Shown here: one piece after another, positions 5,849 through 64,000 of the stretch
Position numbering within the stretch: the stretch's first letter is position 1
Layout: each line of letters opens with the position of its first letter
From: Isurus oxyrinchus
Taxonomy: Eukaryota
Length of the DNA stretch: 64,000 nucleotides
Assembly (NCBI GenBank): GCA_026770705.1
Contig: JANJGN010000017.1
Location: 12,338,001-12,402,000, forward strand
Direction: 5' to 3'
The notes under the pieces: model-generated
Told to the model about the DNA's origin: nothing
The model's database searches: none
Seen by the model: only the letters and a program-made list of their open reading frames with translations
Made by a program: the position numbers and the translations under genes

Positions 5849-5874
5849 GTAAGTGATAACCTGAGCTGGACCAT

Positions 5875-11628: not shown

Positions 11629-13975
11629 GGAACCAAGAAGAGGCAAAAACATACTTGGCCCCATCCTCATCAACCTGCCTGTCGCAGATGAATCTGTCCA
11701 TGACAGTATCGGTAGGAGTGACCACCGCTCAGTCCTTGTGGAGACGAAGTCCCAGCTTCACACTGAGAATACCCTCCTTCGTGTTGTGTGGCACTACCAC
11801 CATGCTAAATGGGATAGATTTCGAACAGATCTAGCAACTCATGATTGGGCATCATCAGGCACTGTTGACCATCAGCAGCAGCAGAATTGTACTCGAACAC
11901 AATCTGTAACCTCATGGCCTGGTATATCCACCACTCTACCATAACCATCAAGCCAGGGGATCAACCCTGGTTCAATGAAGAGTGCAGGAGGGCATGCCAG
12001 GAGCAGCACCAGGGATACCTAAAAATGAGGTGTCAACCTGGTAAATCTATAACACAGGACTATTTGCATGCCAAACAGCATAAGCAGCAAGCGATAGACG
12101 GAACTAAGTGATCCCACAACCAATGGATCAGATCTAAGCTCTGCAGACTTACCACATCTAGTTGTGAATGTTGGTGGATAATTAAACAACTCACTGGAGA
12201 AAGAGGCTCCACAAATATCCCCATCCTCAATGATGGAGAAGCCCAGCACATCAATGCAAAAGATAAGGCTGAAGCATTCGCAACAATCTTCAGCCAGAAG
12301 TGCCGAGTGGATGAGCCATCTCAGACTCCTCCAGAAGCCCCCAGCATCGCAGATGCCAGTCTTCAGCCAATTCGATTCATTCCATGTGATATCAAGAAAT
12401 GGCTGAAGGCACTGGATAGGGCGAAGGCCATGGGCCCTGACAATATTCTGGCAATAGTACTGAAGACTTGTGCTCCAGAACGTGCCAGGCCCCTAGCTAA
12501 GCTGTTCCAGTACAGCTACAACAGTGGCATCTACCTGGCTATGTGGAAAATTGCCCAGGTATGTCCTGTACACAAAAAGCAGGACAAATCCAACCCAGCC
12601 AATTACCACCCCATCGCTCTACTCTCGCTCATCAGTAAAGTTATGGAAGGGGTCATCAACAGTGCTATCAAGTGACTCAAGCTTAGCAATATCCCGCTCA
12701 CTGATGCCCAGTTTGGTTTCCGCCAGGGCCACTCAGCTCCTGACCTCATTACAGCCTGGGTTCTAACATGGGCAAAACAGCTGAACTCCAGAGGTGAGGT
12801 GAGTGTGACTGCCCTTGACATCAAGGCAGCATTTGACCGAGTGTGGCATCAAGGAGCTCTAGCAAAACTGAAGTCAATGGGAATCAGGGGGAAATCTCTC
12901 TGCTGGCTGGAGTCATACCTAGCACAAAGGAAAATGGTTGTGGTTGTTGGAGGTCAGACCTCTCAGCTCCAGGACATCATTACAGGACTTCCTCAGGGAC
13001 GTGTCCTCGGTCCAACCATCTTCAGCTGCTTCATCAATGACCTTCCTTCCATCATAAGGTCAGAAGTGGGGATGTTCACTGATATTTGCACAATGTTCAG
13101 CACCATTCACAACTCCTCAGATACTGAAGCTATCCATGTCCAAATGTAGCAAGACCTGGACAATATCCAGGCTTGGGCTGACAAGTGCCAAGTAACATTT
13201 GCGCCACACAGGTGCCAGGCAATGACCATCTCCAAAAAGAGAGAATACAACCATCGCCCCTTGATGTTCAATGGCATTACCATCACTGAATCCCCCACTA
13301 TCAACATCCTGGGGTTACCATTGACCAGAAACTGAACTGGACAAGCCATATAAATACTGTGGCTACAAGAGCAGGTCAGATGCTAGGAATCCTGTGACGA
13401 GTAACTTACTTCCTGACTCCCCAAAGCCTGTCCACCATCTACAAGGCACAAGTCAGGAGTGTGATGGAATATTCTCCACTTGCCTGGATGAGTGCAGCTC
13501 CAACAACACTCAAGAAGCTTGACACCATCCAGGACAAAGCAGCCCACTTGATTGGCATCACATTCACAAACATTCACTCCCTCCACCACCGATGCACAGT
13601 AGCAGCAGTGTGTACCATCTACAAGTTGCACTGCAGGAATTCACCAAGGCTCCTTCAACCTGCGACCACTACCATCTAGAAGGACAAGGACAGCAGATAG
13701 AAGGGCAGCAGATAGATGGGAACACCACCACCTGGAAGTTCCCCTCCAAGTCACTCACCATCCTGACTTGGAAATATTTCACCGTTCCTTCACTGTCGCT
13801 GGGTCAAAATCCTGGAACTCCCTCCCTTACAGCACTGTGGGTGAACCTTTACCACATAGACTGCAGCGGTTCAAGAAGGCAGCTCATCACCACCTTCTCA
13901 AGAACAACTAGAGATGGGCAATAAATGCTGGCCCAACCAGCGAAGTCCACATACCGTAAATGAATTAAAAAAAAC
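11629..13975 (+). mobile_element. 5'-truncated APE-RT LINE (CR1/Jockey group, possibly Zenon-like), sense orientation in a spondin intron; disrupted ORF
   Basis: Translated pieces VWHYHHAKWDRFRTDL, MGPDNI..VLKTCAPE, WKIAQVCPVHKKQDKSNPANY, QFGFR, ALDIKAAFDRVWH, PQG.VLGP..F..FINDL, IYKAQVRSVMEYS; 3' tail GGGCAATAAATGCTGGCC...A-run. Confidence 0.92.
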
Positions 13976-14577
13976 ATTCGCCTGAGTGCATCTTATATCA
14001 GTCTAGAGGTTAGCTTCTACTACCCTGCCAAATTCTGATTCGACCAATCTCATCAACTTTAACCATGTAGCCATTCTTCGTGCACAAGTTTTGCCAGGAG
14101 TGAAATCAAGCTACTAAACCGCTGGGGGGGTGCAGCCAATTCTGAATTTGTCCTCAGCCGATATCTGTAAAATTACGCTTTCAGCAGGAGTCACTTAATA
14201 ATAATGGAGAGTAGGAACCACAGGGGTCTGAAACCAATTATTAGCACACCCAAGCCTGGGTTGGCTCACTCATCAGGGATTGAAATTGAAACAGGAAGAC
14301 TCTGGTTTTCAGGGTTGGCTTCTACACTGGGCAACGTATTAACCTATTGAGCTTTCAGGGGAAGCAAAGTAGAGTTTTTAACAAACATTTATCTTTTACT
14401 ATAGTGACTGCTGATCTAGAGTCTTGTTGACTTTAGGCCCTGGGAACTGAATAGTCAGATTTTAGCTTGATAAGCAAGGACAATCAAAGCTAAAAATATT
14501 AAAAATGTAAAGAAAAACTGTAACTCTGAAATAAGTTTGTAGAAATGCACAGCGAATCCACCAGCACCTGAAAAGGG

Positions 14578-15294: not shown

Positions 15295-15617
15295 TTTCTT
15301 ATTCTTTCATGGGATGAGAGCGGCTCTGGCAAGGTCAGCATTTGTTGCTGCCCATCTTAATTGCCTCCATGAACTGAGTGCTATTGCATAAAGCAGTTAA
15401 GAATAAGCCACATCACCAAAGGCTAGCAGATTTCCTTCCCTAAAGGGCATAAATGAACCAGTGACATGGTCACCATTACTGAAAGCAGCTTAATATTCCG
15501 GATTTATTAATTGAATTTAAATTCCATCAGCTGCCATGATGAGATCTGAATCCAAGCATTAGCCTGGGCTACTGGATTACTAGCCCAGTGACATGACCAT
15601 TACACCACGATCTTCCC
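15295..15617 (-). mobile_element. tRNA-derived SINE (MetaSINE/SlmI-like) with the APE-RT LINE tail
   Basis: Reverse complement reads GTGGTGTAATGG..CTAGTAATCCAG..GATGGAATTTAAATTCAAT..CTGGTTCATTTATGCCCTTTAGGGAAGGAAATCTGC..GATGGGCAGCAACAAATGCTG; same structure as 55313-55640. Family name is from recall only. Confidence 0.7.
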
Positions 15618-18830: not shown

Positions 18831-19387
18831 CAACTGCATGACATTATCATAACATAACCAGGTTCCAAGCACTTGCTTCCTCACTTATATACACAGTCCT
18901 GCCATTGAAGTTACATCTACCCATTACTAGCCCAGGAAATGCAGGATGAAATATCCTGCTGTGCTGTATGATGGATATTGTGCAAAGAGGGTTATGACTG
19001 TATAGTGTTTGACAGGTTATTAAGTACTCAACAGGTGAGGTTTGTCCATTTAGTTAACTAGTGTTGAGCGATTTTAATTAGGACTATTGTTCACCTTTCA
19101 AACTGACCCTGCAGTGAGGCGAGAATGGAATAATTACACCTTTCAAATGGAAAATGCGCCCCAATCAATATTAGTCAGATAAATGAACACCATGGCATCC
19201 AGCACTGAATAGAGAATTGTGCGTTTTCACGGGCAATAGCCCTCAAATAGTGAGAAGCTTGCAGCAGCTTGTGATTGAAATGCCTGAAATCAAATCTGTC
19301 TGTAAAATGTTGGATCGTGATTTGTTTGTCTTACAGCCCAGCGTTTAATGAGTTGCTTGTAATATGATGAGTAATAGATTCACTATT

Positions 19388-20855
19388 CACAAATGCCCTT
19401 CAAGGAAAAACATTTTCTGCCTACACTTGGTCTGGCTTCCATGTGACTCCAGACCCCCAGCAATGCAGTTTACTCTTAACGGCCCTCTGAAATGACCTAG
19501 CAAGCCACTCAATTGTATTGACCCGCTGCGAAGACAAGAACAATAAACTCTGACTGACCACCTGGCTTGACCTCTGCACTGGGAACAACAAAGCCACATT
19601 CAGTCCAGTCAACCCTGCAACACACATCTCACTAACATCTAGGGACTTGTGCCAAAATTGGGAGAGCTGCACCTCACATTAGTCAAGCAACAGCCTGGTA
19701 TAGTCATAATGATAGAATCATACTTTTCAGTCAATGTCCCAGACTCCTCCATCACCATCCCTGGCTATGTCTTGTTCTACTGGCAGGACAGACCCATCAG
19801 AGGTGGTAGCACAGTCCAGAGGGTGTGGCCCTGGGTGTCTTCGGCATTGACTTTGGACTCCATGAAGTCTCATGGCATCAGGTCAAACAATTCTTCTGAT
19901 TACCATCTACCATCTTCCCGTAGCTGATGAACTAGTACTCCTTTATGTTGAACACCACTTGGAAGAAGCACTGAAGTGCCTAGAATCTCCTCTAGATAAA
20001 GGACTTCAATGGTCATCAACAACAGTGGCTTGGTAGCACCACTGTTGACTAAGCTGGCCGATTCCTGAAGGACGTGATCACTAGACTGGGCCTGCAGCAG
20101 GAGGTGAGGGTACCAACAAGAAGGAAAAAGCTATTTGACATTGTCCTCACCAATCTACCTGTCACAGATGTACCTGTCCATGACAGTGTTTGTAGGAGTG
20201 ACCACCGCACAGTCCTTGTGGAGATAAAGTCCTGGCTTCACAATGAAGACACCCTCCATCATATTGTGGACACTAGCATTATATTGAAAGATTCAGAACA
20301 AATCTAGAAGCTCTAAATTGGGCATCCATGAGGCACTGTGGGCCATCAGCAACGACAGAATTGTATTCTACCACAATCTATAACTTCATAGCCAGACAAA
20401 TCTTTCATTCTAACATTAGCATCAGGCCAGGGACCAACCCTGGTTCAATGAAGAGCTCAGAGGACAATGTCAGGAGCAGCACTACAGTACCTGAAAATGA
20501 GGTGTCTACCTGGTGAATCTGTAACATGGGATTACACACATGTTACTCAGCAGAAGCGGAATGTAACAGGCAGCCAATTGATTAGGTAAAAGCTCAGCAG
20601 CCCTATGACATCCATTTGTGGCGTGGACAATTAAACAACTAACAGGAGGAGGAGGCTCCATGAACATCCCATCTTCAATGATAGTGTGTGAGGCATGTGA
20701 GTTTGCAGCCATCTTCAGCCAGAAGCTCCGACTGGTGGTCCATCTCAGCTTCCCACTGAGGTTCCCACCATCACAGAAGACAGTCTTCATCTAATTTGAT
20801 TCATTCCACCTGGTATAAAATGCCTGAGTGCACTTTGATATAGCAAAGGCTACGG
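19388..20855 (+). mobile_element. 5' portion of the SINE-headed APE-RT LINE (SINE body, endonuclease, linker); 3'-truncated
   Basis: Begins with SINE-body ATGTGACTCCAGACCCCCAGCAATG..CCCTCTGAAATGACCTAGCAAGCCACTC, then PKLGEL..VKQQPGIVIMIESY (APE). Confidence 0.85.
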
Positions 20856-20857
20856 TG

Positions 20858-23745
20858 TTTTTTAATTCATTCACAGGATGTGGCTGTCGCTGGCTAGGCC
20901 AGGAATTATCGCCCATCCCTAGTTGCCCTTGAGAAGGTAATCGTGAGCTGCCCTCTTGAACCGCTGCAGTCCATGTGGTGTAGGTACAGTGCTGTTAGGG
21001 AGGGAGGGAGTTCCAGGATTTTGACCCAGTGACAGTGAAGGAACGGCGATATATTTCCAAGACAGGGTGATGAGCGGCTTGGAGGGGAACTTCCAGGTGG
21101 TGGTGTTCCCATTTATCTGCTGCCTTTGTTCTTTTAGATGGTAGCAGTCCTGGATTTGGAAAGTGCTGTCTATTGGGCCTTGGTGAGTTCCTGCAGTGAT
21201 ACAAACTGCTGCCACTGTGCGTCAGTGGTGGAGGGAGTGAATGTTTGTGGATGGGGGGGCCAATCAAGTGGCTGCTCTGTCCTGGATGGTGTTGAGCTTC
21301 TTAAGTGTAGCAGCTGCACTCATCCAGGCAAGTGGAGAGTATTCCATCGCACTCTTCACTTGTGCCTTGTAGATGGTGGACAGGCTTTGGGGAGTCAGGA
21401 AACGAGTTATTCGCTGCAGGATTCCTAGGCTCTGACCTGCTCTCGTAGCCACAATATTTATATGGCTTGTCTAGCTCAGTTTCTGGTCAATGGTAACCCC
21501 AGGAAGTTGATAGTGGGGGATTTGGCAATGGTAATGCCATTGAATGTCAAGGGGCAACAATTAGAATCTCTCTTTTTGGAGATAGTCATTGCCTGGCACT
21601 TGAGTGGCACGAATGTTACTTGCCACTTGTCAGCCCAATCCTGGATATTGTCCAGGTTTTGATGCACTGGGACATGGACTGCTTCAGTATCTGAGCAGAC
21701 ATGAATGTCGCTGAACATATGAATAAGGGGGAGGAGTGGGTTATTCGGCCCCTTGACCTTACTCTGCCATTTAATAAGATAATGGCTGATCTGATAGTAA
21801 CCTCAAATCTGCATCCCGCCTACCCCAGATAACCTATCACCCCCCTTGATTACCAAGATTCTATTCACCCCTGCCTTAAAAATATTCAAAGACTCTGCTT
21901 CCACTGACTTTTCAGGAAGAGAGTCCCAAAGACTCATGACCTTCTGCATGAAGAAATTTCACCTTATCTCCATGTTAAACAGGCGACCCCTTATTTTTAA
22001 ACAGTGAACCCTAGTTCTAGATTCTAGAACATTGTGCAATCATCAGTGAACATCTTCACTTCTGACATTATGGAAGGTCATTGATGAATCAGCTGAAGAT
22101 GGTTGGGCCTGGGACACCACCCTGAGGAACTCCTGCAGTGTCCTGGAACTGAGATAATTGATCTCCAATGACCACAACCATCTTCCTTTGTGCTAGGTAT
22201 GACTCTGACTAGCGGAGAGTTTTCCCCCAGACTCCAGTTTTCCTCGGGCTCCTTGATGCCACATTCGGTCAAATGCTGCCTTGATGCCAAGGGCAGTCAC
22301 TTTCACCTCACCTCTTGAGTTCAGTTCTTTTGTCCATGTTTGAACCAAGGCTGTAATGAGGTCAGGAGCTGAGGAGCCCTGGTGGAACCCAAACTGGGTG
22401 TCAGTGAGCAGGTTATTGCTGATAAGTGCCGCTTGATGGCACTGCCGATGACACCTTCCATCACTTTGCTGATGATCGAGACTAGAATGATGGGGTGGTA
22501 ATTAGCTGGATTGGATTTGTCCTGCTTTTCATGTATAGGACATACCTGGCAATTTTCCACATCGTCAAATAGATGCTAGTGTTGCGGCTGTACTGGAACA
22601 TATTGGCTAGGGGTGCAAATTTTCAGTACTGTTGCTGGAATGTTGTCAGGGTTCATAGCCTTTGCAATATCCAGTGGCTTTAGCCGTTACTTGGTATCAC
22701 ATGGAGTGAATCGAATTGGCATTCACGGCTGGATGTACCAGGACTGCAGAGCTTAGACCTGATTCATTGTTTGTGGGATCGCTTAGCTCTATCTATCACT
22801 TGCTGCTTACGCTGTTTGGCATGCAACTAGTCCTGTGTTCACCAGGGTGACACCTCATTTTTAGGTATGCCTGCTGCTACTCCTGGCATGCCCTCCTGCA
22901 CTCTTCATTGAAGCAGGGTTGATCCCCCAGCTTGATGGTAATGGTGGAGTGGGGCATATGCCTGGCCGTGAGGTTACAGATGATGATTGTATATAATTCT
23001 GCTGCTAGTGCCACACAACACAATGGCGGGTACCCTCAATTTGTAAACGAGGCTTTGTATGGACAAGGACTGTGCGGTGGTCATTCCTACTGATACTGTC
23101 ATGGACAGATGCATCTGCAACAGGTAGATTGGTGACAACGAGGTCAAGTAGGTTTCCCCCTCTTATTGGCTCCCTCACCATCTGCTACCGACCCACTCTG
23201 GCAGCTATATACTTTAGGACTCGGCCAGCTTGGTCAGTAGTGATGCTACCAAGGCACTCTTGGTGATGGACATTGAAGTCCCCCACCCAGAGTACAACCT
23301 GTGCCCTTGCCACCCTCAGTGCTTCCTCCAAGTGGCGTTTAACTTGGAGGAGCACTGATTCATCAGCTGAGGTGTGGCAGTAGGTTTCCTTGCCTGTGTT
23401 TGGCCTGATGCCATGAGGCAATGTTGAGGACTTCTAGGACTATTCTCTCATGACTGTATATCATTATGCCTTTACCTCTGGTGTCTCACCAGCAGGACAT
23501 ACCCAGGGATGGTGATGGTGGAACTTGAGACATTGCCTGTCAGGTATGATTTCATGAGTATGCCTATGTCAGGCTGTTGCTTGACTAGCCTGTGAGACAA
23601 CTCTCCCAATTTTGGCACAAACCCACAGAGGTCTGTGGGACTGTAAGGAGGACTTTACAGGGTCGACAGGGCTGGGTGTGGCCTAGGTCAATGCAAGATG
23701 CTCTGTCCAGCTTCATTTCTTTTATTAGACTTTGTCACTGTTTGA
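20858..23745 (-). mobile_element. APE-RT LINE of the same family, near full length with deletions; interrupted by a CR1 insert
   Basis: Tail ATTCATTCACAGGATGTGG at 20865; RT pieces QVCPIHEKQDKSNPANY and STIYKAQVKSAMEYS; EN piece VLWVGDFNVHHQE. Confidence 0.9.
21719..22026 (-). mobile_element. CR1 3' tail inserted into the LINE
   Basis: Flanked by duplicated GAACAT (21713-21718 and 22027-22032); host LINE sequence is continuous across the insert. Confidence 0.8.
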
Positions 23746-23749
23746 TACA

Positions 23750-23920
23750 ATTATCACAATGCTGTTTGTGGGAGCCTGCTGTGCACAAATTGGTTGCCAT
23801 GTTTTGCACATTACAACAGTGACTACACTTTAAAAAAACTTCATTTGCTGTAAAGTGCTTTGGGACATTCTGGGGCCATGAAAGGCACTACAGAAATGCA
23901 AGTTCTTTCTTTTTCTTTGC
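23750..23920 (+). mobile_element. DeuSINE 3' tail
   Basis: GCTGTTTGTGGGAGCCTGCTGTGCACAAATTGG..AAAGGCACTACAGAAATGCAAGTTCTTTC. Confidence 0.7.
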
Positions 23921-25319: not shown

Positions 25320-26400
25320 TCCTCAGGCATGGTCACAACAACTAAATGCCAGAGAGATGAGAATTGTTGCCTTTGACTTCAAAGGCAGCATTCAATCATG
25401 GAACAAAACTAAGGTCAATGAGGTGAGGTGAAACAGAAAATCCTCCTTTTTTTGGAGCCATACCTGACACAGAAAGAGATGGTTGTGGTTGTCAGATGTC
25501 AATCATCAAAAGATCAAAACATCATTGAAGGAATTCTTCAGTGAAGTGCCTTTGGTTCAATCATCTTCACTGATTCATCAATAATTTTTCATCTATTATA
25601 ACTTCAGGACGAGGGCTGTTCACTATTGATTTCACAGTGTCAAGCTCCATTCACAATTCTTTCATTAATGCAGTACTGCAGTCCATAACAGCTTACAGCA
25701 TGATTTGACAACATCCAGTCTAAATCTGACAAATAACATGGAAGATTCCTGCAACATAAGTACCAGGTAACGAGCATCACAAACAGGAAAAAGTCTCTTC
25801 ACTTCCCTTTATCTTCAACAGTACCACCATCAACACATTGTGGGTTGGCATTTACTGGAAGCTTAACTGGACCAGCGTTGTAACGTTGTAACTACAATCA
25901 TGCAACAGAGACTAGGTACCCAGCAATGAATGGCTCGCATTTTGACCCCATAAGACCTGTCCACTATCTTCAAAACTCAAGTAAGAAGCGTGATGAAATA
26001 TTTACCACCTGTCTAACTAGTGCTGCCAGTATAACACTCAAACTGTCCAGGAAAAGCACTCCATTTGATCAGTGTCCCCGACATTGGACTCCGTATCCAC
26101 CACCTCCATCACTGGCACACTGTAGGTACAATGTGCACCAATTACAGTTTCCAATGCAGTAACTCACTCAGCTTACTTTGATCACCCAGTCTTGCAACCT
26201 CTATTGCTATGAACAACAAGGGCAACAATAATGTGGAAATACCTGAATTCTCCTCCAATTCACAGGCCATCCTAACTTAGTTAGATATCACTCTTCCACC
26301 ATTGTCACTGAGTCAAAATCCTGGAATATTTGCCTTAACAGCTGAGTTGGGAGTACCACAAGACAAGCAGCAGTTCAAGGAGGAGTCCCATCACCATTCT
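25320..26400 (+). mobile_element. Old, heavily diverged copy of the APE-RT LINE (RT domain to 3' region)
   Basis: Colinear remnants: WSQQLNAREMRIVAFDFK, GATGGTTGTGGTTGTC, AACTGGACCAG, CTGTCCACTATCTTCAA, GAGTCAAAATCCTGGAA. Confidence 0.7.
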
Positions 26401-28830: not shown

Positions 28831-28857
28831 GATGAGATGTTAATAATAAATACAATA

Positions 28858-40625: not shown

Positions 40626-43425
40626 TTTTTTAAAAAATTCATTCACAGGATGTGGGCTTTGCTGGCTGGGCCAGCATTTATTGCCCATCCCTAGTTGCCC
40701 TTGAGAAGGTGGTGGTGAGCTGCCTTCTTGAACCACTGCAGTCCATGTGGTGTAGGTACACCCACAGTGCTGTTAGGGAGGGAGTTCCAGGATTTTGACC
40801 CAGCGACAGTGAAGGAACGGCAATACATTTCCAAGTCAGGATGGTGAGTGACTTGGAGGGGAACTTCCAGCTGGTGGTGTTCCCATCTATCTGCTGCCCT
40901 TGTCCTTCTAGGTGGTAGTGGTTGTGGGTTTGGAAGGTGTTGTCTAAGGAGCCTTGGTGAATTCCTGCAGTGCAAGTTGTAGATGGTACACATTGCTGTT
41001 ACAGTGCATCGGTATGGAGGGAGTTAATGTTTGTGGATCTGGTGCCAATCAAGTGGGCTGCTTTGTCCTGAATGGTGTCAAGCTTCTTGGGAGCTGCACT
41101 CATCCAGGCAAGTGGGAAGTATTCCATCACACTTCTGACTTGTGCCTTGTAGATGGTGGACAGGCATTGGGGAGTCAGGAGGTGAGTTACTCGTTGCAGG
41201 ATCATTAGCCTCTGACCTAATCTTGTAGCCATAGTATTTATATAGATAGTCCAGTTCAGTTTCTGGTCAATGGTAACCCCAGGATGTTGATAGTGAGAGA
41301 TTCAGTAATGGAAATGTCATTGAACATCAAGGGGCGATGGTTGGATTCTCTCTTGTTGGAGATGGTCATTGTCTGACACTTGTGTGGCACAAATGTTACT
41401 TGTCACTTGTCAGCCCAAGCTTGGATATTGTCCAGGTCTTACTGCATTTGGATATGGACTGCTTCAGTACCTGAGGAGTCGCAAATGGTGCTGAACATTA
41501 TGCAATCATCAGCGAACATCCCCACTTCTGACCTTATGATAGAAGGAAGGTCATTGATGAAACGGCTGAAGGTAGTTGGGCCAAGGACACTACCTTGAGG
41601 AAATCCTGCAGTGATGTCCTGGAGCTGAGATGACTGACCTCCAACAACCACAACCATCTTCCTTTGTGCTAGGTATGACTCCAACCAGCAAAGAATCTTC
41701 CCCCTGATTCCCATTGACTTCAGTTTTGCTCAGGCTCCTTGATGCCACACTCGGTCAAGGGCAGTCAGTCTCACCTCACCTCAGGAGTTCAGCTCTTTGG
41801 TCCATGTTTGAACCAAGGCTATAATGAGGTCAGGAGCTGAGTGACCCTGGCAGATCCCAAACTGGGTGTCAGTGAGCAGGTTATTGCTAAGCAAGTGCCA
41901 CTTGATAGCATTGTTGATGACCCCTTCCATTACTGATGATCAAGAGTAGACTGATGAGGCAGTAATTGGCCGGGTTGGATTTGTCCTGCTTTTTGTGTAC
42001 AGGACATACCTGGGCAATTTTCCACATAGCTGGATAGATGCCAGTGTTGTAGCTGTACAGGAACAGCTTGGCTAGGGGTGTGGCAAGTTCTGGAGCACAA
42101 GTCTTCAGTACTATTGCCGGAATATTGTCAGGGCCCATAGCCTTTGCACTATCCAATGTCTTCAGCCGTTTCTTGATATCAAGTGGAGCGTATCAAATTG
42201 GCTAAAGACTGGCATCTGTGATGCTGAGGACCTCCGGAGGAGGCCGAGATGGATTGTCCACTCGGCACTTCTGGCTGAAGATTGTAGCAAATGCTTCAGC
42301 CTTACCTTTTGCACTGATGTGCTAGGCTCCTCCATCATTGAGGATGGGGATATTTGTGGAGCCTCCTTTTCCAGTGAGTTGTTTCATTGTCCACCACCAA
42401 TCACGACAGGATGTGGCAGGACTGCAGAGCTTAGATATGATCCATTGGTTGTGGGATCGCTTAGCTCTGTCTATCACTTGCTGCTTATGCTGTTTGGCAT
42501 GCAGATAGTCCTGTGTTATAGCTCAACCAGGTTGACACCTCATTTTTAGGTATGCCCACAGCGCCAGTCTTGAGATGCTAGATCTGTTTAAAATCTATCC
42601 CACTTAGCATAGTGGTAGTGCCACACAACATGATGGAGGGTATCCTCAATGAAGGTGGAACTTCGTCTCCTATTGGTACTGTCCTGAACAGATGCATCTG
42701 TGGCAAGCAGGTTGGTGAGGACGTGGTCAAGTATGTTTTTCCCTCTTGTTGGTTCCCTCACCACCTGCTGGAGACCTAGTCCTTTAGGAATCGGCCAGCT
42801 TGTTCAGTAGTGGTGTTACCGAGCCACTCTTGGTGATGGACATTGAAGTCCTCCACATTCTGCACCCTTGCCACCCTCAGTGCTTCCTCCAAGTGATGTT
42901 CAACATGGGGGAGCACTGATTCATCAGCTGAGGGAGGGCGGTACATGGTAATCAGCAGAAGATTTCCTTGCCCATGTTTGACCTGACACTATGAGACTTC
43001 ATGGGGTCCGGAGTTGATGTTGAGGACTCCCAGAGCAACTCCCTCCTGGCTGTATACCACTGTGCCACCATCTCTGCTGATGGGATGTTGATGGTGGTGT
43101 TTGAGATATTATCTGTAAGGTATGATTCTGTGAGGATGACTATGTCAGGCTGTTGCTTGACTAGTCTGTGAGACAGCTCTCCCAATTTTGGCACTAGCAC
43201 CCAGATGTTAGTAAAGGAGGACTGTGCAGGGTTGACAGGGCTGAATTTTCCGTTGTTGTTTCTGGTGCCTAGGTCAATGCCTGGTCGTCCGTCCAGTTTC
43301 ATCCCTTTTTTGCGACTTTGTAGCGGTTTGTTACAACTGAATTCGAATTCCACCATCTGCCATGGCGGAATTTGAATTGGATTCCCAGAGCATTACCCTG
43401 GGTCTCTGGATTATTACTCCAGAGA
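40626..43425 (-). mobile_element. Near full-length SINE-headed APE-RT LINE (internal deletions, disrupted ORF)
   Basis: ATG at 43302: MKLDGRPGIDLG..TNIWVLVPKLGELSHRLVKQQPDIVILTESYL (APE); RT FPQGSVLGP..MFADD; tRNA-like head remnant at 43345-43425; complete 3' tail. Confidence 0.93.
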
Positions 43426-51302: not shown

Positions 51303-52015
51303 AAAAGGAAAAAGAAAGACTTGCTTTTAAACAGCGCCTTTCATAACTTCAGGACATCCCAAAGCGGTTTACCGTCACTGAAGTGCTTTTGAAGTGTAGT
51401 CACTGTTGTAATGTCGGAAACGCAGCAGACAATTTGTACACAGCAAGGTCCAACAATCTCATGACCTCTGCCACCTAAAAGGTCAAGGGCAACAAGCATA
51501 TCGAAGCCCCACCACCTCCAAGCTCTACTCCAAGTCACACACCATCCTGACTTGGAAATAAATCGGTTGTTTCTTCATCATCGTTGGGTCTAATGGAACT
51601 TCCTATCTAAAGTCATTGTGAGTGTACCTACACCACATGGACCACAGTGTAGCAAGAAGGTGGTTCACCACCATCTTCTCAAGGGTAATTGGGGATGGAC
51701 AATAAATACTGGTCTTGCCAGCGATGCCCACATCCCGAGAATTAATAAATAAAAAAGAAAACTGCAATGCAGTAATGTTGGTTGAGGGATAAACTTTGGC
51801 CCGGGCATCAGGGAGAACTCTCCTGCTCATCTTCGAAATAGTGCCACGGGATCATTACATCCACCTGAAAGGACAGAAGCAGCCATTGTTTAATACCTCA
51901 TCTGAAAATCAGCACCTCCAACAGTGCAGCACTGAAGTGTTGGCCTAGATTTTGTGCTCAAGTCCCTGGAGTGGGAATTGAACCTTTGACCTTGTGAGTC
52001 AGAGCCACGGCTGAT
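51303..52015 (-). mobile_element. DeuSINE interrupted by a + strand APE-RT LINE tail (about 51457-51760)
   Basis: SINE halves are colinear around an insert ending GCCAGCGATGCCCACATCCCGAGAATTAATAAATAAAAAA. Confidence 0.8.
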
Positions 52016-52407
52016 AAAACTGAAGCTTGGCAGCCTGATCGACTTCATACATAAAGCTGAACGCAGTCTCACCGTTGAAACAGGGCCTCCTGAAGCAACC
52101 TCCCTCTGCCATATTGAAGCTTGATCACCTCACTTGATAAAAATGGCTCGGAGGGTTTTTGGTTATTGGTCGCACTTCAATGACATCTGAGGTGTAACCG
52201 AATCTGTTGGACATTTTTCTTCTTCTTATTCTCCCTGGGAATATACATACAGCAGAATTCCCATGGGGAATGTCATGCACCTTCAAAGTAAGACCAAGGA
52301 AAAGACTATAAACTGCATAGCAGTTCTGCAGGGAAAAACAACAAAAAAACCCCCAACCCTTTCCTAACAAGACTCTTCAGACCTGCCAGAGTTTAACTTG
52401 AGTTTGC

Positions 52408-52725
52408 ATTTTTTTTTTATTCTTTCATGGGGTCTGAGCATCATTGGCAAGACCAGCGTTTATTGCCCATCTCTAGTTACCCTTGAGAAGGTGGCAATGA
52501 GCTGCCTTCTTGAACTGCTGCAGTCCATGTGGTGTAGGTACAGCCACAGTGCTGTTAGGGAGGGAGTTCCAGGATTTTGACCCAGCGACAGTGAAGGAAT
52601 GGTGATATATTTCCAAGTCAGGCTGGTGAGTGGCTTGGAGGGGAACTTGCAGGTGGTGGTGTTCCTGTGTACCTGCTGCCCTTGTCCTTCTAGGTGGTGG
52701 AGGTTGCGGGTTCAGAAGGTGTCGT
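52408..52725 (-). mobile_element. APE-RT LINE 3' tail fragment
   Basis: Poly-T, then ATTCTTTCATGGG..CCCTTGAGAAGGTGG..GGAGTTCCAGGATTTTGACCCAGCGACAGTGAAGGAA. Confidence 0.85.
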
Positions 52726-53008
52726 CAAAAGGTACTGTTTATTCCTTCCCAAATTGGACTTCTGTTTGCAATAGATGTCACTCGTACTGCGCATGTACCT
52801 GGTACAAAAACAGTCAATGTGCTGCCCTCAAGAATTACAATGTCTTGTTAGGCATCACTGCAGTTTTCATTTAGTCCGATGAGCTTCACATTTGAACAGA
52901 AGTTTACGAAGCTGCAGGCAGTGAGTGGAGAATCAGCATTGCTACTCTCAACCCACATTTCCAGATGCTATCTCTAACTCAATGATACTATGACTACTGT
53001 AAAGTAGC

Positions 53009-55312: not shown

Positions 55313-55640
55313 GGGGAGGTGATGGCATAGTCATATTGTTGTTAGACTAGTAATCCAGAAACCCAGGGTAATGCTTAACCAGGTCAACTGGGTTTGAATC
55401 TGACCACAGCAGATGGTGGAATTTGAATTCAATAAAAATCTAGAAAAGCCTATGATGACCATGAAACCATTGCCGTAAAAACCCATCTGGTTCTCTAATG
55501 TCCCTTAAGGGAAGGAAATCTGCTGGCCTACATGTGATGCCAGACCTATGGTAATATAGTTGACTCTTAACTGCCTCTGAACAAGGACAATTAGGGATGG
55601 GCAATAAGTGCTGGCCTAGCCAGCGATGTCCACATTGCTG
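55313..55640 (+). mobile_element. Complete tRNA-derived SINE (MetaSINE/SlmI-like) ending in the APE-RT LINE tail
   Basis: A-box-like TGGCATAGTCA, B-box-like GGTTTGAATC; body GTAAAAACCCATCTGGTTCTCTAATGTCCCTTAAGGGAAGGAAATCTGC; tail AATTAGGGATGGGCAATAAGTGCTGGCCTAGCCAGCGA. Confidence 0.8.
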
Positions 55641-55971
55641 ACCATCCCAACACTGAGCCTTTATCCAGTCTTGGCAAAGACCCCATTCTGTGCCAGTGAC
55701 CATATTCCACTTGCTGTACAAGTTATCTCCCCTGAATAATAATGGCAATTTATTGCGAACAAGAACCATTGTTATACTAATGTCTACCATACACAGGATT
55801 ACAACACACTGGGGGAAATTTTAAACACACGCTCAAAAAAAAACACAAATGGATTTGGTTTGGATGGGAGGTTAAAAACTTAAAATCTTGAACCCACCCA
55901 CTTCTGATTTTAATGGGGTTGGCACTAAGGCCGAGTGTCCAATCTTCTTGCAGGAGGCAGTTTGGAAAACC

Positions 55972-58900
55972 TGACAGTGAAGGAACGGTGATATATTTCC
56001 AAGTCAGGATGGTGAGTGGCTTGGAGGGGAACTTCCAGGTGGTGGTGTTCCCATTTATCTGCTGCCCTTGTCCTTCTAGTTGGTAGCGATCTTCGGTTTA
56101 AAAGGTGCTGCCTATGGGGCCTTGATGAATTTCTGCAGTGCACCTTGTAGATGATACACACTGTTGTCACTGTGCATTGGTGTTGGAGGGAGTTTGTGGA
56201 AGGGGTGCCAATCAAGTGGGCTGCTTTGTTCTGGACGGTGTCAAGCTTCTTCAGTGTTGTGGGAGCTGCACTCATTCAGGCAAGTGGAGAGTATTCCATC
56301 ACACTCCTGACTTGTGCCTTGTAGATGATGGACAGGCTTTGGGGAGTCAGGAGGTGAGTTACTCATCGCACGATTCCTAGCCTCTGATCTGCCCTTGTAC
56401 ATGGCTAGTCCAGTTCAGTTTCTGGTCAATGGTAACTCACAGGGTGTTGCTAGTGGGGGTTTCAGTGGTGGTAATGCCATTGAACATTAAGGGGCGATGG
56501 TTTGATTCTCCCGTGTTGGAGATGGTCATTGCCTGGTATTCGTTTGGTTGAATGTTACTTGCCACTTTTCAGCCCAAGCCTGGATATCATCTGGGTGTTG
56601 TATTTGGACATGAACTGCTTCAGTATCTGAGGAGTCGTGAATGGTGCTGAACATTGTGCAATCATAGCAAACATCCCCACTTCCGATCTTACGATGGAGG
56701 GAAGGTCATTGATGGAGCAGCTGAAGATGGTTGGGCTGAGGATATTACCCGAAGGAACTCCTGCAGTGATGTCTTGGAACTGAGATGATTGACCTCCAAC
56801 AACCACAACCATCTTCCTTTGTGCTAGGTATGGCTCCAACCAGTGGAGAGTTTTCCCCCTGATTCCCATAGACTCCAGTTTTGTGAGGGCTCCTTGAAGC
56901 CACTCTTGGTCAAATCTGCCTCGATGTCAAGGACAGTCACTCTCAACTCATCTCTGGAATTCAGCTCTTTTGTCCATGTTTGAACCAAGGCCGTAATGAG
57001 GTCAGAAGCTGAGTGACCCTGGCAGAACACAAACTGAGAGTTAGTGAGCAGGTTGTTGCTAAGCAAGTGCCGCTTGATAGCGCTGTTGATGGCCCCTTCC
57101 ATCACTTTACTGATGATCGAGAGTAGACTGATGAGGCAGTAATTGGCTGGGTTAGATTTGTCCTGCTTTTTGAGTACAGGACATAACTGGACAATTTTTG
57201 ACATTGTCGCTAGATGCCAGTGTTGTAGCTGTACTGGAACCGCTTGGCTCGGGGCATTGCAGGTTCTGGAATACAGGTCCTTGGTACTATTGCCGGAATA
57301 ATGTAAGGGCCCGTAGCCTTTGCACTAGTCAGTGCTTTCAGTCATTGCTTGATATCATGTGGAGTGAATTGAATTCGCTGAAGACTGGCATCTGTTTTGC
57401 TGGGGACCTCCAGAGGAGGCCGAGATGGATCATCCACTCGGCACTTCTGGCTGAAAATTGCAGCAAATGCTTCAGTCTTATCTTTTGCAATGATGTGTTG
57501 GGCACCTCCATCATTAAGAATGGGGATATTTGTGGAGCATCCTCCTCTTGTGAGTTGTTTAATTATCCACTACCATTCATGACTGGATGTGGCAGGACTG
57601 CAGAGCTTAGATATGATCCGTTGGTTGTGGGATTGCTTAGCTCTGTCTATCACTTGCTGCTTATGGTGTTTGGCACACAAGTAGTCCTGTGTTATAGCTT
57701 CACCAGGTTGACACCTCATTTTTAGGTATGCCTGGTGCTGCTCCTGGCATGCCCTCCTGCACTCTTCATTGAACCAGGGTTGAACCCCTGGCTTGATGGT
57801 AATGGTAGAGTGGGGGATATGCCGGGACATGAGGTTATAGATTGTGTTGAGTACAATTCTGCTGCTGCTGATGGCCCACAGCGCCTCATTGATGCCCAGT
57901 CTTGAGTTGCTAGATCTGTTCGAAATCTATCCCATTTAGCACCATGGTAGTGCTACACAACACGATGGAGGGTATCCTCAATGTGAAGGTGGGACTTCGT
58001 CTCCACAAGGAATGTGCGGTGTCACTCCTACCGATACTGTCATGTACAGATGCATCGCTGCAGGCAGGTTGGTGAGGATGAGGTCAAGTATGTTTTTCCC
58101 TCTTTTGGTTCCCTCACCGTCTGCCACAGACCCAATCTAGCAGCTATGTCCTTTAGGACTCGGCCAGCTCCGTCTGTGGTGGTGCTACCAAGCCACTCTT
58201 GGTGATGGACATTGAAGTCCCCCACCCAAAGTACATTCTGCACCCTTGTCACCCTCAGTGCTTCTTCCAAGTGGTGTTCAACATGGAGGAGCACTGATTC
58301 ATTAGCTGATTCATCATTCATCGGTAGGTGGTAATCAGCAGGAGGTTTCCTTGCCCACGTTTGACCTGATGCCATGACACTTCATGGGGGCTGGAGGTAA
58401 TGTTGAGGACTCCCAGGGCAACTCCCGCCCGAATGTATACCACTGTCCCGCCACCTTTGCTGGGTCTGTCCTGCCGGTGGGACAGGACTTATCCAGGGAT
58501 GGTGATGGTGGTGTCTGGGTCATGATCTGTAAGATATGAATCCGTGAGGATGACTAGTCTAAAATACAGCTGTCCCAATATTGGCACTAGCCTCCAGATG
58601 TTAGTAAGGAGGACTTTACAGGGTCGACAGGGTCAAGTTTGCTGGTGTCATTTCTGGTACCTAGGTCGACATCTGTAGTCTGTCCAGTTTCATTCCTTTT
58701 TATAGCTTGCTAGGCCATTTCAGAGGGCATTTAAGAGTCAACCACATTGCTGTGGGTCTGGAGTCACATGTGGGCCAGACCAGGTAAGGACTGCAGATTT
58801 CCTTCTCTAAAGGGCACTAGTGAACCAGATGGGTTTTTATGACAATCCAGATTCTGGATTTTTATTGAATTCAAATTCCACCATATGCCGTGGTGGGATT

Positions 58901-58979
58901 TGAACCCAGATCCCCAGAGGTATTACCCTGGGTCTCTGGATTACCAGCCCACTGACAATACCACTACACCACCGCCTCC
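55972..58979 (-). mobile_element. SINE-headed APE-RT LINE with intact 5' head; about the last 170 bp of the tail missing; disrupted ORF
   Basis: Head 58979-58705 (A-box TGGTGTAGTGG 58971-58961, B-box GGTTCAAATCC 58906-58896); ATG at 58693; EN VLWVGDFNVHHQEWLGS; RT motifs. Confidence 0.93.
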
Positions 58980-58984
58980 TGCAG

Positions 58985-61028
58985 TTCGCTGGAATCATAC
59001 CCCATGCCAAACTTAAAATACACATCTGTGGGAAAATATGCTGGTGCACCACACAATTTGACAAGTGTGTTGTGCAGAAGTCAGGACTTACCGTCAGGGC
59101 CTTGCTCACATCACGGACATCTGAGGAGCAGAAGGTGCTGGAGGAGCGTCCATTGCATGCTGGGTGGATTCTCATGGATATGTTTCCACCACGAAGCAGC
59201 TCACGGAAGGTGGAAGGTCACTGTTAAGGGTCTGCTTCGGGACGTCAGTGTCTTGGCCATGGTCTGCAACGGATGATCGTCGAGGGGGTGTAGAGGAAGG
59301 TCAAGGGTTGACTGGGAAAGGAAGATGTGTCGGTGGGGGGAGGGGGGTGAATTTGGGAGAGGGGATGGATAGTGTTGGGGGGGGGTGAGGTTGGGGGGAG
59401 GGGTACAGGGGGAGGAGGGCGTAAAGGGGAGAATACAGCAACTGGAGAGATAGGTGTAAAGGGGGAGGAAGTTGTAATGGAAGGAGTTCAGAGGGGGGAA
59501 CGGAGTTCAGATGGGGGAAAGACTTTGGGTGGAGGAAGGAGTTCGATGGGGGCAGGACTTTGTGGGGAGCAAGGAATTCCGAGAGGCACTCCTCCAACTC
59601 CTCTTGTTGAGGACTTGCAACAGCTCTGTGTGATGTTCTCCCGCCTTCTACTGACTCTCCACAATGAGTTGGAAGGCCGACTCCAGAGGCTCGTCATCTG
59701 ACTCGGACCTCACAGATGCTCTTCCCCAGCAGTCCTCCGAATGCTGAGGAGCTCAGCTCAACCTGCCTCTTCCAGCTGCGGACACATGTCCGTGCAGTGA
59801 CTACCAGATTGTGGACCCAAGCCTGCTGTGTATCTGGGTCCCACCGAGGTGTGTGTCCCTGCGCTGGTGGAGGCTGTGGGTAAGCATTGTGACAGATCTT
59901 CCAGGCTGCTTATTTCCAGCTCTTTGATGGAGGAGGTGTCTTCTTGGCTGGAGGTGAGGATCTGGCAGGAGCTGGAGCTGGAGCTGGATCTGAGGGACTG
60001 GCTGGCTGAGGGTGTCAGTCGCTTGGCAGAGCTCTCTGTGAACCAAAGTAGAGATAAGTAGTGCATGGCATAAGAGTCAAAAGCAGGAGAGAGAGCACTC
60101 ACATTTGCGTTGAGAGAGGGATGACGTAGTGCAGGATCCTCACATGGGTGTTTGCCACCGACCTCATCGTCACCGCAGGCAGGGTCCATGTCCTCACCAG
60201 TTAGTGTGATGGCTCATTCCTCAAAGTGACCTAATGTGGGCAAATCCACGCCCGGTCTGGAACCTCTCCCTGCTGTTGTCAGCCAGCTTCTTCTGCATTA
60301 AAACAGATGGAGAGAGTGTGAGCAGGACACGTGGCACTGCGTGGAATGTTTGTGTGGTGAGCGGAGCCATGGACAGGATGAGGACGCGAGCTCCAGAGGG
60401 TATGGGCCTGATGGAGATGTGAGGGTGTGTGTGAGAGTTAGTGGTCTTGACCTTTGAGGTGTGAGATCCCTGTGGATGAGTAATGGGTTTGTGAGCGTGT
60501 GAGTTGACAGTGATGAGAAGAGTGACTTACCAAGGTGGAATGGATGAGAGCATTCATCCTCTTTTGGCACTGGATGGCTATCCTTTTTTGCAGGGTACTA
60601 GCCCTCACCACTGCTGCCACCGCCTCCCCTGCTGGATTTGCCACCTTTCTTGCTGGTCTTTGCCCAGAACGAGGGTAGAGGACATCATGGCGGGCCTCCA
60701 CGGCATCCAAAAAGCGTTCCAGGGGATGTGTCACTGAATCGGGGGGCCTTTTAGGGCACGTCTTCATGCAGCAGCCCTGGGTTGGAAGCACTGACAGGTG
60801 TGTGCGCACTGCTGCACATTAAATATGGTGCCCAGTGTGAACAAGCGGCAAGATGACTGTGTGACTAGCCAATCAGAGACCTCCCGCCAGCAAAATGGTT
60901 TATTGCCAGGAATGCATGTTTAATGAGGTGGGATTGGGCATGAAAAGCCGCCATTGCAGCTGGTGGGTAAAATGCTCTTTTTCCAGCCCACTGCCACACT
61001 TAGTGCAAATCTGGGACGATTCTGCCCA
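58985..61028 (-). mobile_element. PIF/Harbinger transposon remnant carrying a multi-exon Myb/SANT-like gene (disrupted)
   Basis: Terminus GGGCAGAATC at 61027; exon 1 LERFLDAVEARHDVLYP..AVAAVV..RIAIQCQKRMNAL|GTAAGT (60530); exon 2 from 60292 KKLADNSRERFQTGRG; exon 3 from 60035. Confidence 0.75.
59330..59575. repeat. G-rich purine low-complexity tract (G-quadruplex potential)
   Basis: Many G4-G10 runs. Confidence 0.7.
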
Positions 61029-64000
61029 TAGTCTTTGTGATCCATTTGATTTTGGCACCATTACAGTGGGTGAACCCCAATTACTGTGACTGCACTCTAT
61101 GTTGTCATTTTCAAACATAATTTCAATTTCTTTCCGCACTTGAGCCAATTTTACTGGATTTAACCTATATGGGTGTTGCCTTATTGAAACTGAATTCCCC
61201 ACATTAATATCATGCAAAGCCAAATTTGCTTCCCCTGATCTATTTCTGCAAATTGCTTTGTGTGACTGCAACAGCTCTTGTAAGTCACTTCAGCAGTTTT
61301 CTAGAAGGTAACAATGTCACATTTAGATTCTTAAGTACTTCCTCATTGTCCAATTTAATCTGAGGAAGGTCAATTTCAGAATCTTTAATTTCTGTTTCCT
61401 CCTCCTTACCTACCACCACCAGTATCTCCTTCTGTTTATCCTCTCACATTTTCTCCAGCCACAAAACCAAGAGCCTTTACCCTTTTATCTGCATTTGCCT
61501 TCATCACTTGCTGTGTATCGTTAAACGTTTCCTGGCCAGCTCGCATGCCCTACTCAATCTTTCTCTGAATTTCATCACATAATCTATGAGAGTAGTTTCA
61601 GAACTTTGACTCACTAATTTTTCTTGAATTGATTTGAGTGGTCCCCTTATTTGATTACCATAAATTATCTCGAAAGGACTGAACACTGTTGACTTATTAG
61701 GGGTGACCCTAATAGCAAACAGTAAGAATGGAATCCCTCAATCTCAATCATGTGGATAGTCTTGACTATATGCTCTAATCACAGTCTTTAAAATTTCTAA
61801 GGCACTTTGTGATTCAGGGTGATCAGTTGACAGCCTAAATTTCTTTATTGCTAGACTGCTCATTACTTCTTTAAACAGCTGTGACATGAAATTTGAATCC
61901 TGATCTGACTCTATTTCTTTCGGTAATCCATATCTTGTAAAGAATTTGGTCAAATCTTTTACAATCACCTTTGCTGTGATTTTCCTTGAAGGTATTGCTT
62001 CTGGAAATTTCATGGATACATCCCTGGTTGTCAGTAAATATTGATTTCCATTTTTAGCCTTAGGGAGGGGTCCTACACAATCAGTCAGGACCCTGTTAAA
62101 AGGTTCCTCAAATGCTGGAATTGAAATTAAAGGTGCAGCTTAAATTACTGCTATAGGTTTTCCTATCATTTGACATGTGTAGCATGTTTAACAGAATTTA
62201 ACTACTTCCTTATGTAGTCCAGGCCAATAGAAATGTTTTTGTATGTTATCTTGAGTTTTCCTGATTCCCAAATGTCCAGCCGTTGTAATTTCATGAGCCT
62301 CTCTCAAATTTCATTCTGGTACCCAGGTGGTATCACTACTCGGTGCACTATCGTCCACTTCTCATCTGTTGGGACATGATGTGGTCTCCATTTCATTATT
62401 AATACATTGTTTCCAAGGTAATAACATTCTTCAATATATTCTGCTTCAGTTTCAGAATAAGCTGTCTGGTATAACTACTTTAAGTCTGGATCCTGCTGCT
62501 GTAAATCCACTAACTTCAAGGAACTAAACACCTCAGCCTCACCCTCTCCAACCTTCTCCTTCTGAGTAATCTCTTCAAAGATAGATCCAGCCAACTGAGG
62601 TTCAATATCCTCCCCCTGTCTTTTAGATTATTTTTTTTCCTGCTTAAGTTCATGTGTCTATGACCTCATCACCATACAATCTGGAAGCATTCCAGTTTGC
62701 TCCTTCTATAAATCCTCTGTTGATTGCATCTCAACAGGTTCCTCTATTGCAGTAGGCGTAGTCATTATTTGCGATTTAGCTATATTATTTCCTAGAATAA
62801 AATGAACCCCGCCCATAGGCAATTTCTTCATAACTCAAATAATTACCCTCTCCTGCTTCCAAATCACTTTTTAAATTTAGTTTATATAACAAAAAAGGCT
62901 TGAACACCCCATGAATTCCACTAACACTTTCTCCTGCAATAACCCTTCTGGACAGCATATATCATATCAGACTATCCCATTACATTAAAGACTATCTCTT
63001 ACAGGAACACATGGGCATACTTTGCCCTCACATATAAAATCTTTAAACATCTATGTAACTTGCTCTTCAGAAGTTCCTTGGGTAAGTTGCGAATACATTC
63101 CCACCTCTCTGGCTAACACCGACTCTTTTTTTCACATTTACAAAGGCTACTGGCCTGTCTTGATTTTGGGCCTCAGAGACCACAGCACTTCTTCTGAGTT
63201 CCTATCACTGCAATCGGTTTCCCATTTAACCTCCAACAATTTAATCTTGTATGTCCAGCCTTGTTACAATGGTAACATACTGCCTTCACCTTTGCCTTCT
63301 ACGTTCCCATATTTAATAGACTGGTATCCTTCACTTGGCTCCTTGTTACTAACACTTTTACCATCGCTAGGTTTTCTATACCTCCAATTTCCTTACTGAG
63401 CCCTACACGATCCTTTTCCTAAGCCCAACTGTCTGTGTGAGCTATCATAAGTATCAGTTAAAACAGCAGCTTCCCTGATCTGTCTACTTCGTCTTTCATT
63501 TAAATATGTGTTGATAGTTACTGGAATACTATCTCTAGATTCTTCAATAATTATAATCTCTCTTACATTTTCAAAAGTCTTGTCTAACTTGCCCTAAACC
63601 ATTGATCCCAGACAGTTTCTTTCTCTCTTACAAATTCTACAAATGTCTGAATAGGTCTCTTTTTTTCGGTCCTCAACTTCAACTGATAAGCTTCAGGGAC
63701 AAGCTCAGAAGCATTTAGTATTGTCTTTTTAAACTAACTCACAGTCTGCAGATTACTCCTCTGATAAGCTAGCATACACATTCATTGCTGTAACTGACAA
63801 AACACTCTGTAAAATTATAGTCCGAGCATCTCTTGGCCAATTCAATCTCATAGCTAACCTTTCAAATGAGGTGAAATATCTTTCAAACCCATCCTCTGTA
63901 AATTTAGGCACTATCCAAAGATTTTTTTATTTAAATCAAATTCCTCAAAAGAATCAAAGTCACCAACCGAATCACTATCTCTCCTTTCTTCCTTTATTCT
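61029..64000 (-). mobile_element. Decayed Gmr1-like Ty3/Gypsy LTR retrotransposon internal region (gag, protease, integrase, start of RT); continues beyond the window
   Basis: gag PKFTEDGFERYFTSFERLA..NWP (about 63910); IN zinc finger HE...GHLGIRKT...FYWPGL...C..C (about 62295-62170); IN core FPEAIP..FTRYGLPKEIESDQDSNFMS; RT PYRLNP..WGSPTVMVPKSNGSQRL (61175-61030). Confidence 0.88.

Follow-up and report, generated by a model that had tools for sequence, protein, structure and literature searches.

Here, we describe a retrotransposon in a 64,000-nucleotide (nt) stretch of the Isurus oxyrinchus genome (contig JANJGN010000017.1, positions 12,338,001 to 12,402,000; hereafter the window). It is a long interspersed nuclear element (LINE) that opens with a tRNA-like head carrying the A and B boxes of an RNA polymerase III (Pol III) promoter. 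The head is a real, family-wide feature of an already catalogued LINE family, elasmobranch Zenon, and the sequence provides good evidence for a mode of life, driven by Pol III, that is so far undescribed. The window is repeat-rich vertebrate DNA in which this family occupies 14,877 of the 64,000 bases (15 listed pieces). The focal element spans 58979 to 55972 on the minus strand (Table 1), and its A and B boxes form the sole such pair on both strands of the 64 kb when at most one mismatch per box is allowed. ARAGORN relaxed to 95% calls a tRNA-Thr at 58975-58886 of the focal head; relaxed settings returned a tRNA-Thr from two of the four heads tested, the other being the free copy at 15.6k (at 85%). 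No tRNA was called by ARAGORN at default settings, and none was found by an Rfam scan of the whole window, in which the only matches, spurious ones, came from a long CA/CT microsatellite-like tract at 29900-30250.

The open reading frame (ORF) downstream combines an apurinic-type endonuclease (APE) and a reverse transcriptase (RT). Remnants of these domains match Exo_endo_phos_2 (1e-7) and RVT_1 (1e-6), and full-length relatives align over 58629-55958 as a single APE-RT ORF (tblastn). The distance from the element start is 286 nt to the ATG and about 340 nt to the endonuclease, and the upstream flanks of the copies are unrelated. This leaves no room for an ORF1, as had been stated in an earlier reading of the letters alone (the sequence-only reading), which also described the layout, borne out here, of a tRNA-like head followed by an ATG at 58693. 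The focal copy itself is a dead fossil and non-autonomous. Its ORF carries 13 private indels, 10 of them frameshifting, and many stops; about 30 nt have been privately deleted immediately before the ATG; and the copy ends at 55972, with the final ~180 nt and the tail absent. A word identical at 12 of 13 nt occurs in inverted orientation at the 5' junction (58972-58984) and in the flank past the cut 3' end (55949-55961), and may mark a rearrangement that took the tail.

Zenon LINEs have been reported from five elasmobranchs, hagfish and coelacanth, all without an ORF1 and with a poly-A tail (PMC13343379; here and below, cited papers are drawn on in the parts accessible to us). Our comparison covers the first 400 nt of each row of Table S2 of that study, ten rows of which are Zenon. 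The tRNA-like head opens all seven elasmobranch Zenon consensuses, from five species in five orders (PMC13343379, supplement), and after it every one of the seven runs through the same body to the ATG region; the headless Zenons are two hagfish rows and one coelacanth row. By eye, the A box lies at nt 6-11 in 7/7 elasmobranch consensuses with a variable spacer, and the B-box core GTTCRAATC is intact in 6/7; the ATG is present in 6/7. Among the first 400 nt of every consensus row, this core was counted seven times, six of them in elasmobranch Zenons, and a 17-nt motif of the focal element matches seven table rows, every one of them an elasmobranch Zenon. Over its 5' 400 nt the focal element is collinear with the published Zenons (about 90% identity to the CarCar consensus over the first ~125 nt, by eye), with which the family in the window also has in common a single APE-RT ORF, the lack of an ORF1, an A tail and a length of ~3.3 kb. 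Judged by sequence identity to consensuses placed in Zenon by their authors, the element is an elasmobranch Zenon (CR1 group) LINE of the same family as CarCar_Zenon-1, RhiTyp_Zenon-1, ScyCan_Zenon-1, HypSab_Zenon-1 and SquAca_Zenon-1/2/3. Among named proteins, the closest are those of Heptranchias, Heterodontus, Rhincodon and Mobula (55-78% identity), followed by lancelet and moth proteins at about 39-44%. The RT phylogeny that the sequence-only reading had proposed as a check (68 rows of 88 matching, of 171) grouped the RT with those of lancelet and moth in a clade supported at 99/90, in a tree that contained no named Zenon, CR1 or L2 reference.

Because 7/7 elasmobranch consensuses start with the head, it is ancestral to sharks and rays. 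The lack of an ORF1 is a general Zenon trait and not a consequence of the head. The elasmobranch consensuses stay >84% identical across the five species, near-full copies number hundreds to thousands in those shark and ray genomes, and Zenon makes up from 0.7% (Hypanus) to 6.8% (Carcharodon, Rhincodon) of the genome and 0.02% in Callorhinchus (PMC13343379). The family is thus already catalogued as Zenon, and its promoter is not described there: the main text of PMC13343379 contains no match for tRNA, polymerase III or promoter, and no description of the head, of T-run loss, of the ATG phase or of a derived short interspersed nuclear element (SINE) was found in the accessible parts of that paper.

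Independent support for transcription by Pol III comes from a loss of T runs that appears specific to the family. For human Pol III, four or more T are taken as a terminator (PMC3141230), and a Pol III RNA of 3.3 kb should be free of runs of at least four T (T>=4) because Pol III terminates there. Twelve window pieces hold nine such runs versus 17.9 in dinucleotide shuffles (2/300 as low). None of these nine sites is common to several copies, as against 6/9 for G, 11/17 for C and 15/32 for A runs, so that no internal sense-strand terminator of a Pol III unit is shared within the family. A majority sequence built column by column from the LINE copies (3,182 nt) contains no T>=4 run versus 4.7 expected (14/3000 shuffles with none) and five runs of at least three T versus 22.8, with G, C and A runs close to expectation. 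Seven other repeat remnants of the window (5,967 nt), which we take from their motifs to be of CR1 and L2 type, contain 26 T>=4 runs versus 22.8. Two related LINEs, L001 and L002, in which no head was found and of which L002 has no tRNA upstream of its ORF, contain 15 versus 11.1 and 24 versus 20.3, respectively (one overlapping short ORF excluded). Among the published consensuses, by eye, TTTT is absent from the first 400 nt of all seven elasmobranch Zenons and present in all three headless ones; the supplement contains 2,750 occurrences. L001 (3-2174) and L002 (1970-7001, its ORF split by an insertion of ~1.4 kb) are LINE-type ORFs in two contigs of bacterial metagenome-assembled genomes and probably represent non-bacterial DNA in those assemblies. 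They were the two LINE-like loci among 14 returned by a protein scan of bacterial and archaeal contigs, the remaining 12 being weak bacterial RT matches that were left unused, and a 21-nt body motif had no match among bacterial and archaeal genome contigs.

The sequence-only reading had counted three window copies with head or body directly before the ORF. The focal copy agrees with this, the copy at 43k has a partial head only and the copy at 19k half of the body only. The 43k copy starts at ~43421, past the A box, and the bases in front of it are still part of an L2-like remnant; the copy has a decayed B box and has lost ~200 nt of its body. The 19k copy has neither head nor ATG and is cut by the 23k copy. 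Private deletions therefore alter the junctions between copies, a difference that the sequence-only reading had listed among contrary findings, and one ancestral layout underlies them; its argument that a recurrent junction speaks against chance adjacency is strengthened by the same layout in the seven consensuses. Copies extending upstream of the head, which it had named as evidence to the contrary, were not seen, the flanks of six 5' ends being unrelated (0/15 pairs above shuffles). Every copy in the window is old (65-90% identity) and depleted in CpG.

Table 1 Features of the focal element, its relatives and the derived SINEs in the window
Feature	Positions	Strand	Basis or remarks
tRNA-Thr-derived head, element 5' end	58886..58979	-	Box scan, relaxed ARAGORN, published consensuses
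A box TGGTGTAGTGG	58971-58961	-	
B box GGTTCAAATCC	58906-58896	-	Gap to A box 54
Hairpin, B-box/T-arm paired with inverted copy just downstream	58866..58906	-	Consensus fold, 4 heads
5' untranslated region (UTR) body, common to free SINEs	58694..58885	-	Two private deletions
MKLD ATG	58691..58693	-	Out of frame with endonuclease here
Decayed apurinic-type endonuclease domain	58040..58640	-	Pfam PF14529 1e-7, tblastn
Decayed reverse transcriptase domain	56550..57324	-	Pfam PF00078, tblastn
RT end and C-terminal ORF region	55972..56549	-	Copy cut at 55972, without 3' UTR and tail
Sister copy (43k)	40629..43421	-	Incomplete head lacking the A box, body with deletion, ORF deleted internally, full tail
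Sister copy (23k)	20847..23750	-	Starts ~35 nt before ATG; full tail; ATG in endonuclease frame
Older sister copy (19k)	19386..20855	+	Body 3' half and 5' ORF; 74% to focal
5'-truncated sister copy	11629..13983	+	Best-preserved RT, full tail
Old RT-region fragment of family	25436..26330	+	65% to focal
3'-end fragment with tail	52401..52729	-	
3'-end fragment	51464-51763	+	
3'-end fragment (49k)	49621-49905	-	
3'-end fragment	37989-38147	-	
3'-end fragment	28853-28907	+	
Free SINE (55k)	55315..55635	+	Head and body joined without filler to LINE's last ~55-70 nt
Free SINE, second subtype (15k)	15300..15617	-	Head (tRNA-Thr AGT), body, LINE tail

Several other features share the window with this family. 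Spondin-family exons lie at 5311-5856 and 10767-11354 on the plus strand (Spond_N 1.6e-38; TSP1_spondin 3.3e-17). An insertion of ~310 nt (21719-22026) splits the 23k copy, the halves of which overlap by ~5 nt in element coordinates. A decayed element lies beside or around the focal copy (58980-60818, minus strand), and an ORF at 60441-60818 is similar to Myb/SANT-like proteins (ESM Atlas 0.87; no more than a lead, without Pfam match), which we assume to be of the kind that occurs in PIF/Harbinger transposons. A decayed remnant of a long terminal repeat retrotransposon follows at 60900-62139 (minus strand; integrase core match, rve 5e-6). LINE 3' fragments, presumably of CR1 type to judge from motifs, are located at 1934-2470, 31759-32489, 14815-14959, 24624-24782 and 46577-46745, and two of them served as T-run controls.

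The two free SINEs bear on the direction of descent. The sequence-only reading had proposed a SINE-LINE chimera, and the head-ORF unit that this implies is real; the direction, however, is possibly the reverse, as the free SINEs resemble internal deletions of the LINE. In the 55k SINE, the match to the LINE 5' part stops at the very base where the tail match starts, and by eye its head is close to the white-shark-type consensus and that of the 15k SINE to the dogfish type. Since the free SINEs consist of the LINE 5' part joined to the LINE tail, the SINE may be derived from the LINE and not the LINE from the SINE. A SINE jumping onto a LINE would hit the exact boundary of 5' part and tail only by luck, whereas this boundary would be explained by internal deletion of a headed LINE, or by a bipartite SINE returning the head via the shared UTR. 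With its A/B-box tRNA-like head at the 5' end the element resembles SINE2 elements, but the long form, at ~3.3 kb with an ORF, is not short and non-coding; the only short ones are the copies at 55315 and 15617. The window also contains a second abundant family of SINEs (563-909, 28900-29145, 35001-35351, 36379-36769, 45442-45773, 51770-52007), which has an L2-like tail and is presumably the Deu-type SacSINE1. A Deu domain or SacSINE1 as the body of the focal element was considered and dropped, as the L2-like tail belongs to that different family; the element tail is Zenon-type and not L2-type, only a 23-nt B-box stretch is common to the second family and the element head (E 0.77), and the element body is probably not a Deu domain.

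Comparable arrangements are known from other SINEs. SacSINE1 and the Deu-SINEs of sharks likewise have a tRNA head and a LINE-derived tail; SacSINE1, at 463 bp, has an L2-type tail (PMC5499810), unlike that of Zenon, a distinction drawn here indirectly. ZenoSINE of Heliconius is likewise a SINE with a Zenon tail, the head of which is of unknown origin and, unlike that of shark Zenon, is not reported on the LINE itself (PMC6685494, accessible parts). The free shark SINEs also resemble the bipartite derivatives of RTE, Ingi, Vingi and R2, which unite a LINE 5' part with a 3' tail. In those, a tRNA head is found on the SINE only, whereas the full shark LINE carries it too, and only these four clades are listed as giving bipartite derivatives, with Zenon/CR1 not among them (PMC5786205, accessible parts).

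Overall, the element is probably transcribed by Pol III from end to end, into an RNA without a cap but with an A tail that would serve as both message and template. Elasmobranch Zenon would have swapped its 5' end for a tRNA-Thr-derived type-2 promoter before the split of sharks and rays. With TFIIIC bound to the internal A and B boxes, Pol III would start at the first base of the head and produce an RNA of ~3.3 kb, and the promoter would thus be part of every full-length copy. Selection may have purged T>=4 runs and most TTT along the entire sense strand, letting Pol III read through the ORF. The hairpin that joins the B-box/T-arm to its inverted copy might, as a speculation, protect the head from tRNA-processing nucleases; its consensus fold from four heads has 16 pairs with one two-sided change, a data set of minimal covariation power, and folding gave modest z-scores, -2.6 in the case of the focal head plus UTR and about -0.3 in that of two SINE heads. 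The RNA would end at a T run near the tail or in flanking DNA, and the A tail would perhaps be added at AATAAA as in T+ SINEs. In the family, AATAAA is followed by T1-6 and then A(n). A-rich tails are present in 8/9 listed tails (a tenth row was discarded as a chance match) and in the 49k copy, the focal copy being truncated. Of the eight complete tails, two have T6 (the 43k copy) or T5 immediately ahead of the A run, and in the other six this stretch is T1-2; in every tail it lies 3' of an AATAAA-like word. T+ SINEs give rise to polyadenylated Pol III RNAs, and their terminators shrink and regrow between generations; those named B2, Dip and Ves likewise possess a tRNA head with A and B boxes, AATAAA, a variable T run and an A tail, but are short and non-coding, while the shark element is 3.3 kb long and encodes APE-RT (PMC8466645). 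The tail layout matches that of T+ SINEs, although generic decay of short A tails could equally produce it.

Translation is the weakest step of this model. The uncapped RNA would have to be translated without 5' scanning into one APE-RT protein, and the MKLD ATG, which the sequence-only reading had named as following the head, does not clearly open the APE-RT frame. From this ATG to the codon that opens a conserved Q-P-C stretch, which leads into the endonuclease, the spacer measures 58 nt in the focal copy, 59 nt in the 43k copy and, by eye, likewise 59 nt in the Hypanus consensus, and the ATG is therefore out of the endonuclease frame. In the 43k copy, the frame is restored solely by a single additional T at a later point. 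A shorter spacer brings the ATG into the endonuclease frame in the 23k copy and SquAca_Zenon-2. Upstream, the endonuclease frame of the main variant is rich in Arg and Lys, like the N-terminus of some relatives, and no in-frame Met is shared before one near 57889, past the endonuclease. The phase of the MKLD ATG and this late Met point, from few sequences, to non-AUG or internal initiation or to a frameshift. Ribozyme-headed LINEs such as R2 are translated from uncapped RNA. Their RNA 5' end is likewise not a normal Pol II start (PMC5786205), but they use host co-transcription and ribozyme cleavage where shark Zenon would use an internal A/B-box promoter.

By target-primed reverse transcription, which is established for LINEs, the APE-RT protein would then copy the RNA, starting from its A tail and 3' stem-loop, and the short SINEs, in which head and UTR are joined to the tail, would use the same protein. 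In the human L1 system, ORF2 mobilises Pol III RNAs in trans without ORF1 (PMC2666806); this fits and does not discriminate, because all Zenons are without ORF1. The complete model of an autonomous coding retrotransposon, with a 3.3 kb Pol III RNA, T+ SINE-like polyadenylation, capless and possibly non-AUG translation and SINEs arising by internal deletion, has in our estimate a somewhat better than even chance of being correct.

A number of points weigh against Pol III as the driving polymerase or limit what can be drawn from the counts. With a codon-aware null, the T>=4 deficit is weaker (0 vs 3.7, P 0.012, in pooled, non-independent ORF pieces) and in a single copy it is 0 vs 1.3 (P 0.23). 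The controls are few, short and T-richer (0.22-0.36 vs 0.21-0.22), and the T counts end before the tails, so that the T6 and T5 runs fall outside them. One ray consensus is without the B-box C, and on 221 nt the Rfam match to the tRNA clan is weak (E 0.096). The target-site duplications that the sequence-only reading had suggested looking for were sought at eight end pairs, where the longest shared words of 4-6 nt are at chance level; none of the copies retains both true ends. An RNA made by Pol III carries no cap and is normally not translated. Intact ORFs, finally, are nearly absent from the shark and ray genomes (0/2313, 1/1419 and 3/612; PMC13343379), so rare that present activity is unproven.

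Four other explanations were considered. The captured head could act as an internal Pol II promoter or 5' UTR of the LINE and yield a capped mRNA, with the boxes kept by exchange with SINEs or by TFIIIC aiding Pol II. This is unlikely. LINEs are taken as Pol II units (PMC5786205), the translation problem would disappear, and exchange is plausible because the window SINE subtypes mirror the LINE 5' subtypes. However, Pol II does not predict the loss of T>=4 and TTT across the whole 3.2 kb, the consensus 5' ends sit at the expected Pol III start, and a capped Pol II mRNA fits poorly with a UTR that has about ten upstream ATGs (five in the focal copy and, by eye, about eleven in the consensus from white shark) and an early AATAAA at nt 114. 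Ranked next, and also doubtful, is a division of labour in which Pol III supplies the template and the protein comes in trans from Pol II read-through of copies in host genes, the element being in effect a giant ORF-bearing SINE. Boxes and T-run loss would be accounted for without translating an uncapped RNA, and the trans-mobilisation of Pol III RNAs by human L1 ORF2 is a precedent (PMC2666806); yet if the RNA that is copied were not also the one translated, the ORF should decay and the short SINEs should win out, which is hard to match with the conserved consensuses and the many near-full copies in the five species. It is quite improbable that the head is a relic of an ancestral Pol III phase, or that the strand is T-poor through splicing, RNA decay or small-RNA avoidance, its match to Pol III being incidental. 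The age of all window copies, the weak single-copy test and the Phe-poor ORF pieces (2.3% vs a mean of 4.1%, range 1.5-5.7%, in 22 relatives; Phe/FF usage is not decisive) are in its favour, but the consensuses of separate lineages have intact boxes although the spacer has diverged, and headless relatives are not poor in T runs. Chance adjacency, or repeated SINE insertion before a LINE, deserves practically no credence: only one window copy has a complete head and other junctions are changed by deletions, but the layout recurs in 7/7 genome-wide consensuses of five orders with unrelated flanks upstream, and the independent window copies argue against an artefact of consensus extension. For the Pol III-driven Zenon favoured here, the observation made in the sequence-only reading is confirmed and its interpretation partly supported: head and ORF were retroposed together as one unit, which in the focal copy is no longer autonomous, and T-run loss lends Pol III driving independent support, with transcription itself being inferred.

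Searches of the open literature brought up no description of a Zenon with a tRNA head or of an autonomous LINE driven by Pol III; a note on one may exist in Repbase, Dfam or subscription journals, which were beyond reach. A tRNA-headed LINE is likewise not described in the accessible parts of PMC7245038, PMC11481361, PMC4824008, PMC3747384, PMC2746220, PMC10468316, PMC6685494, bioRxiv 443036 and bioRxiv 2021.11.26.470093. LINEs are regarded as Pol II units and SINEs as elements that "cannot encode a protein" (PMC5786205). The divide between LINEs and SINEs thus rests on the polymerase, and it appears to be crossed by a family that constitutes 0.7-6.8% of the genomes of five sharks and rays. 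Should the proposal be true, the element would provide a natural kilobase-long coding Pol III transcript and a model of cap-independent translation in vertebrates, and SINEs would have a simple origin, by a direct route from LINE to SINE through internal deletion. The T-run signature could serve as a sequence-only screen for further Pol III-driven LINEs, and in sharks such a retrotransposon would have filled up to ~7% of the genome.

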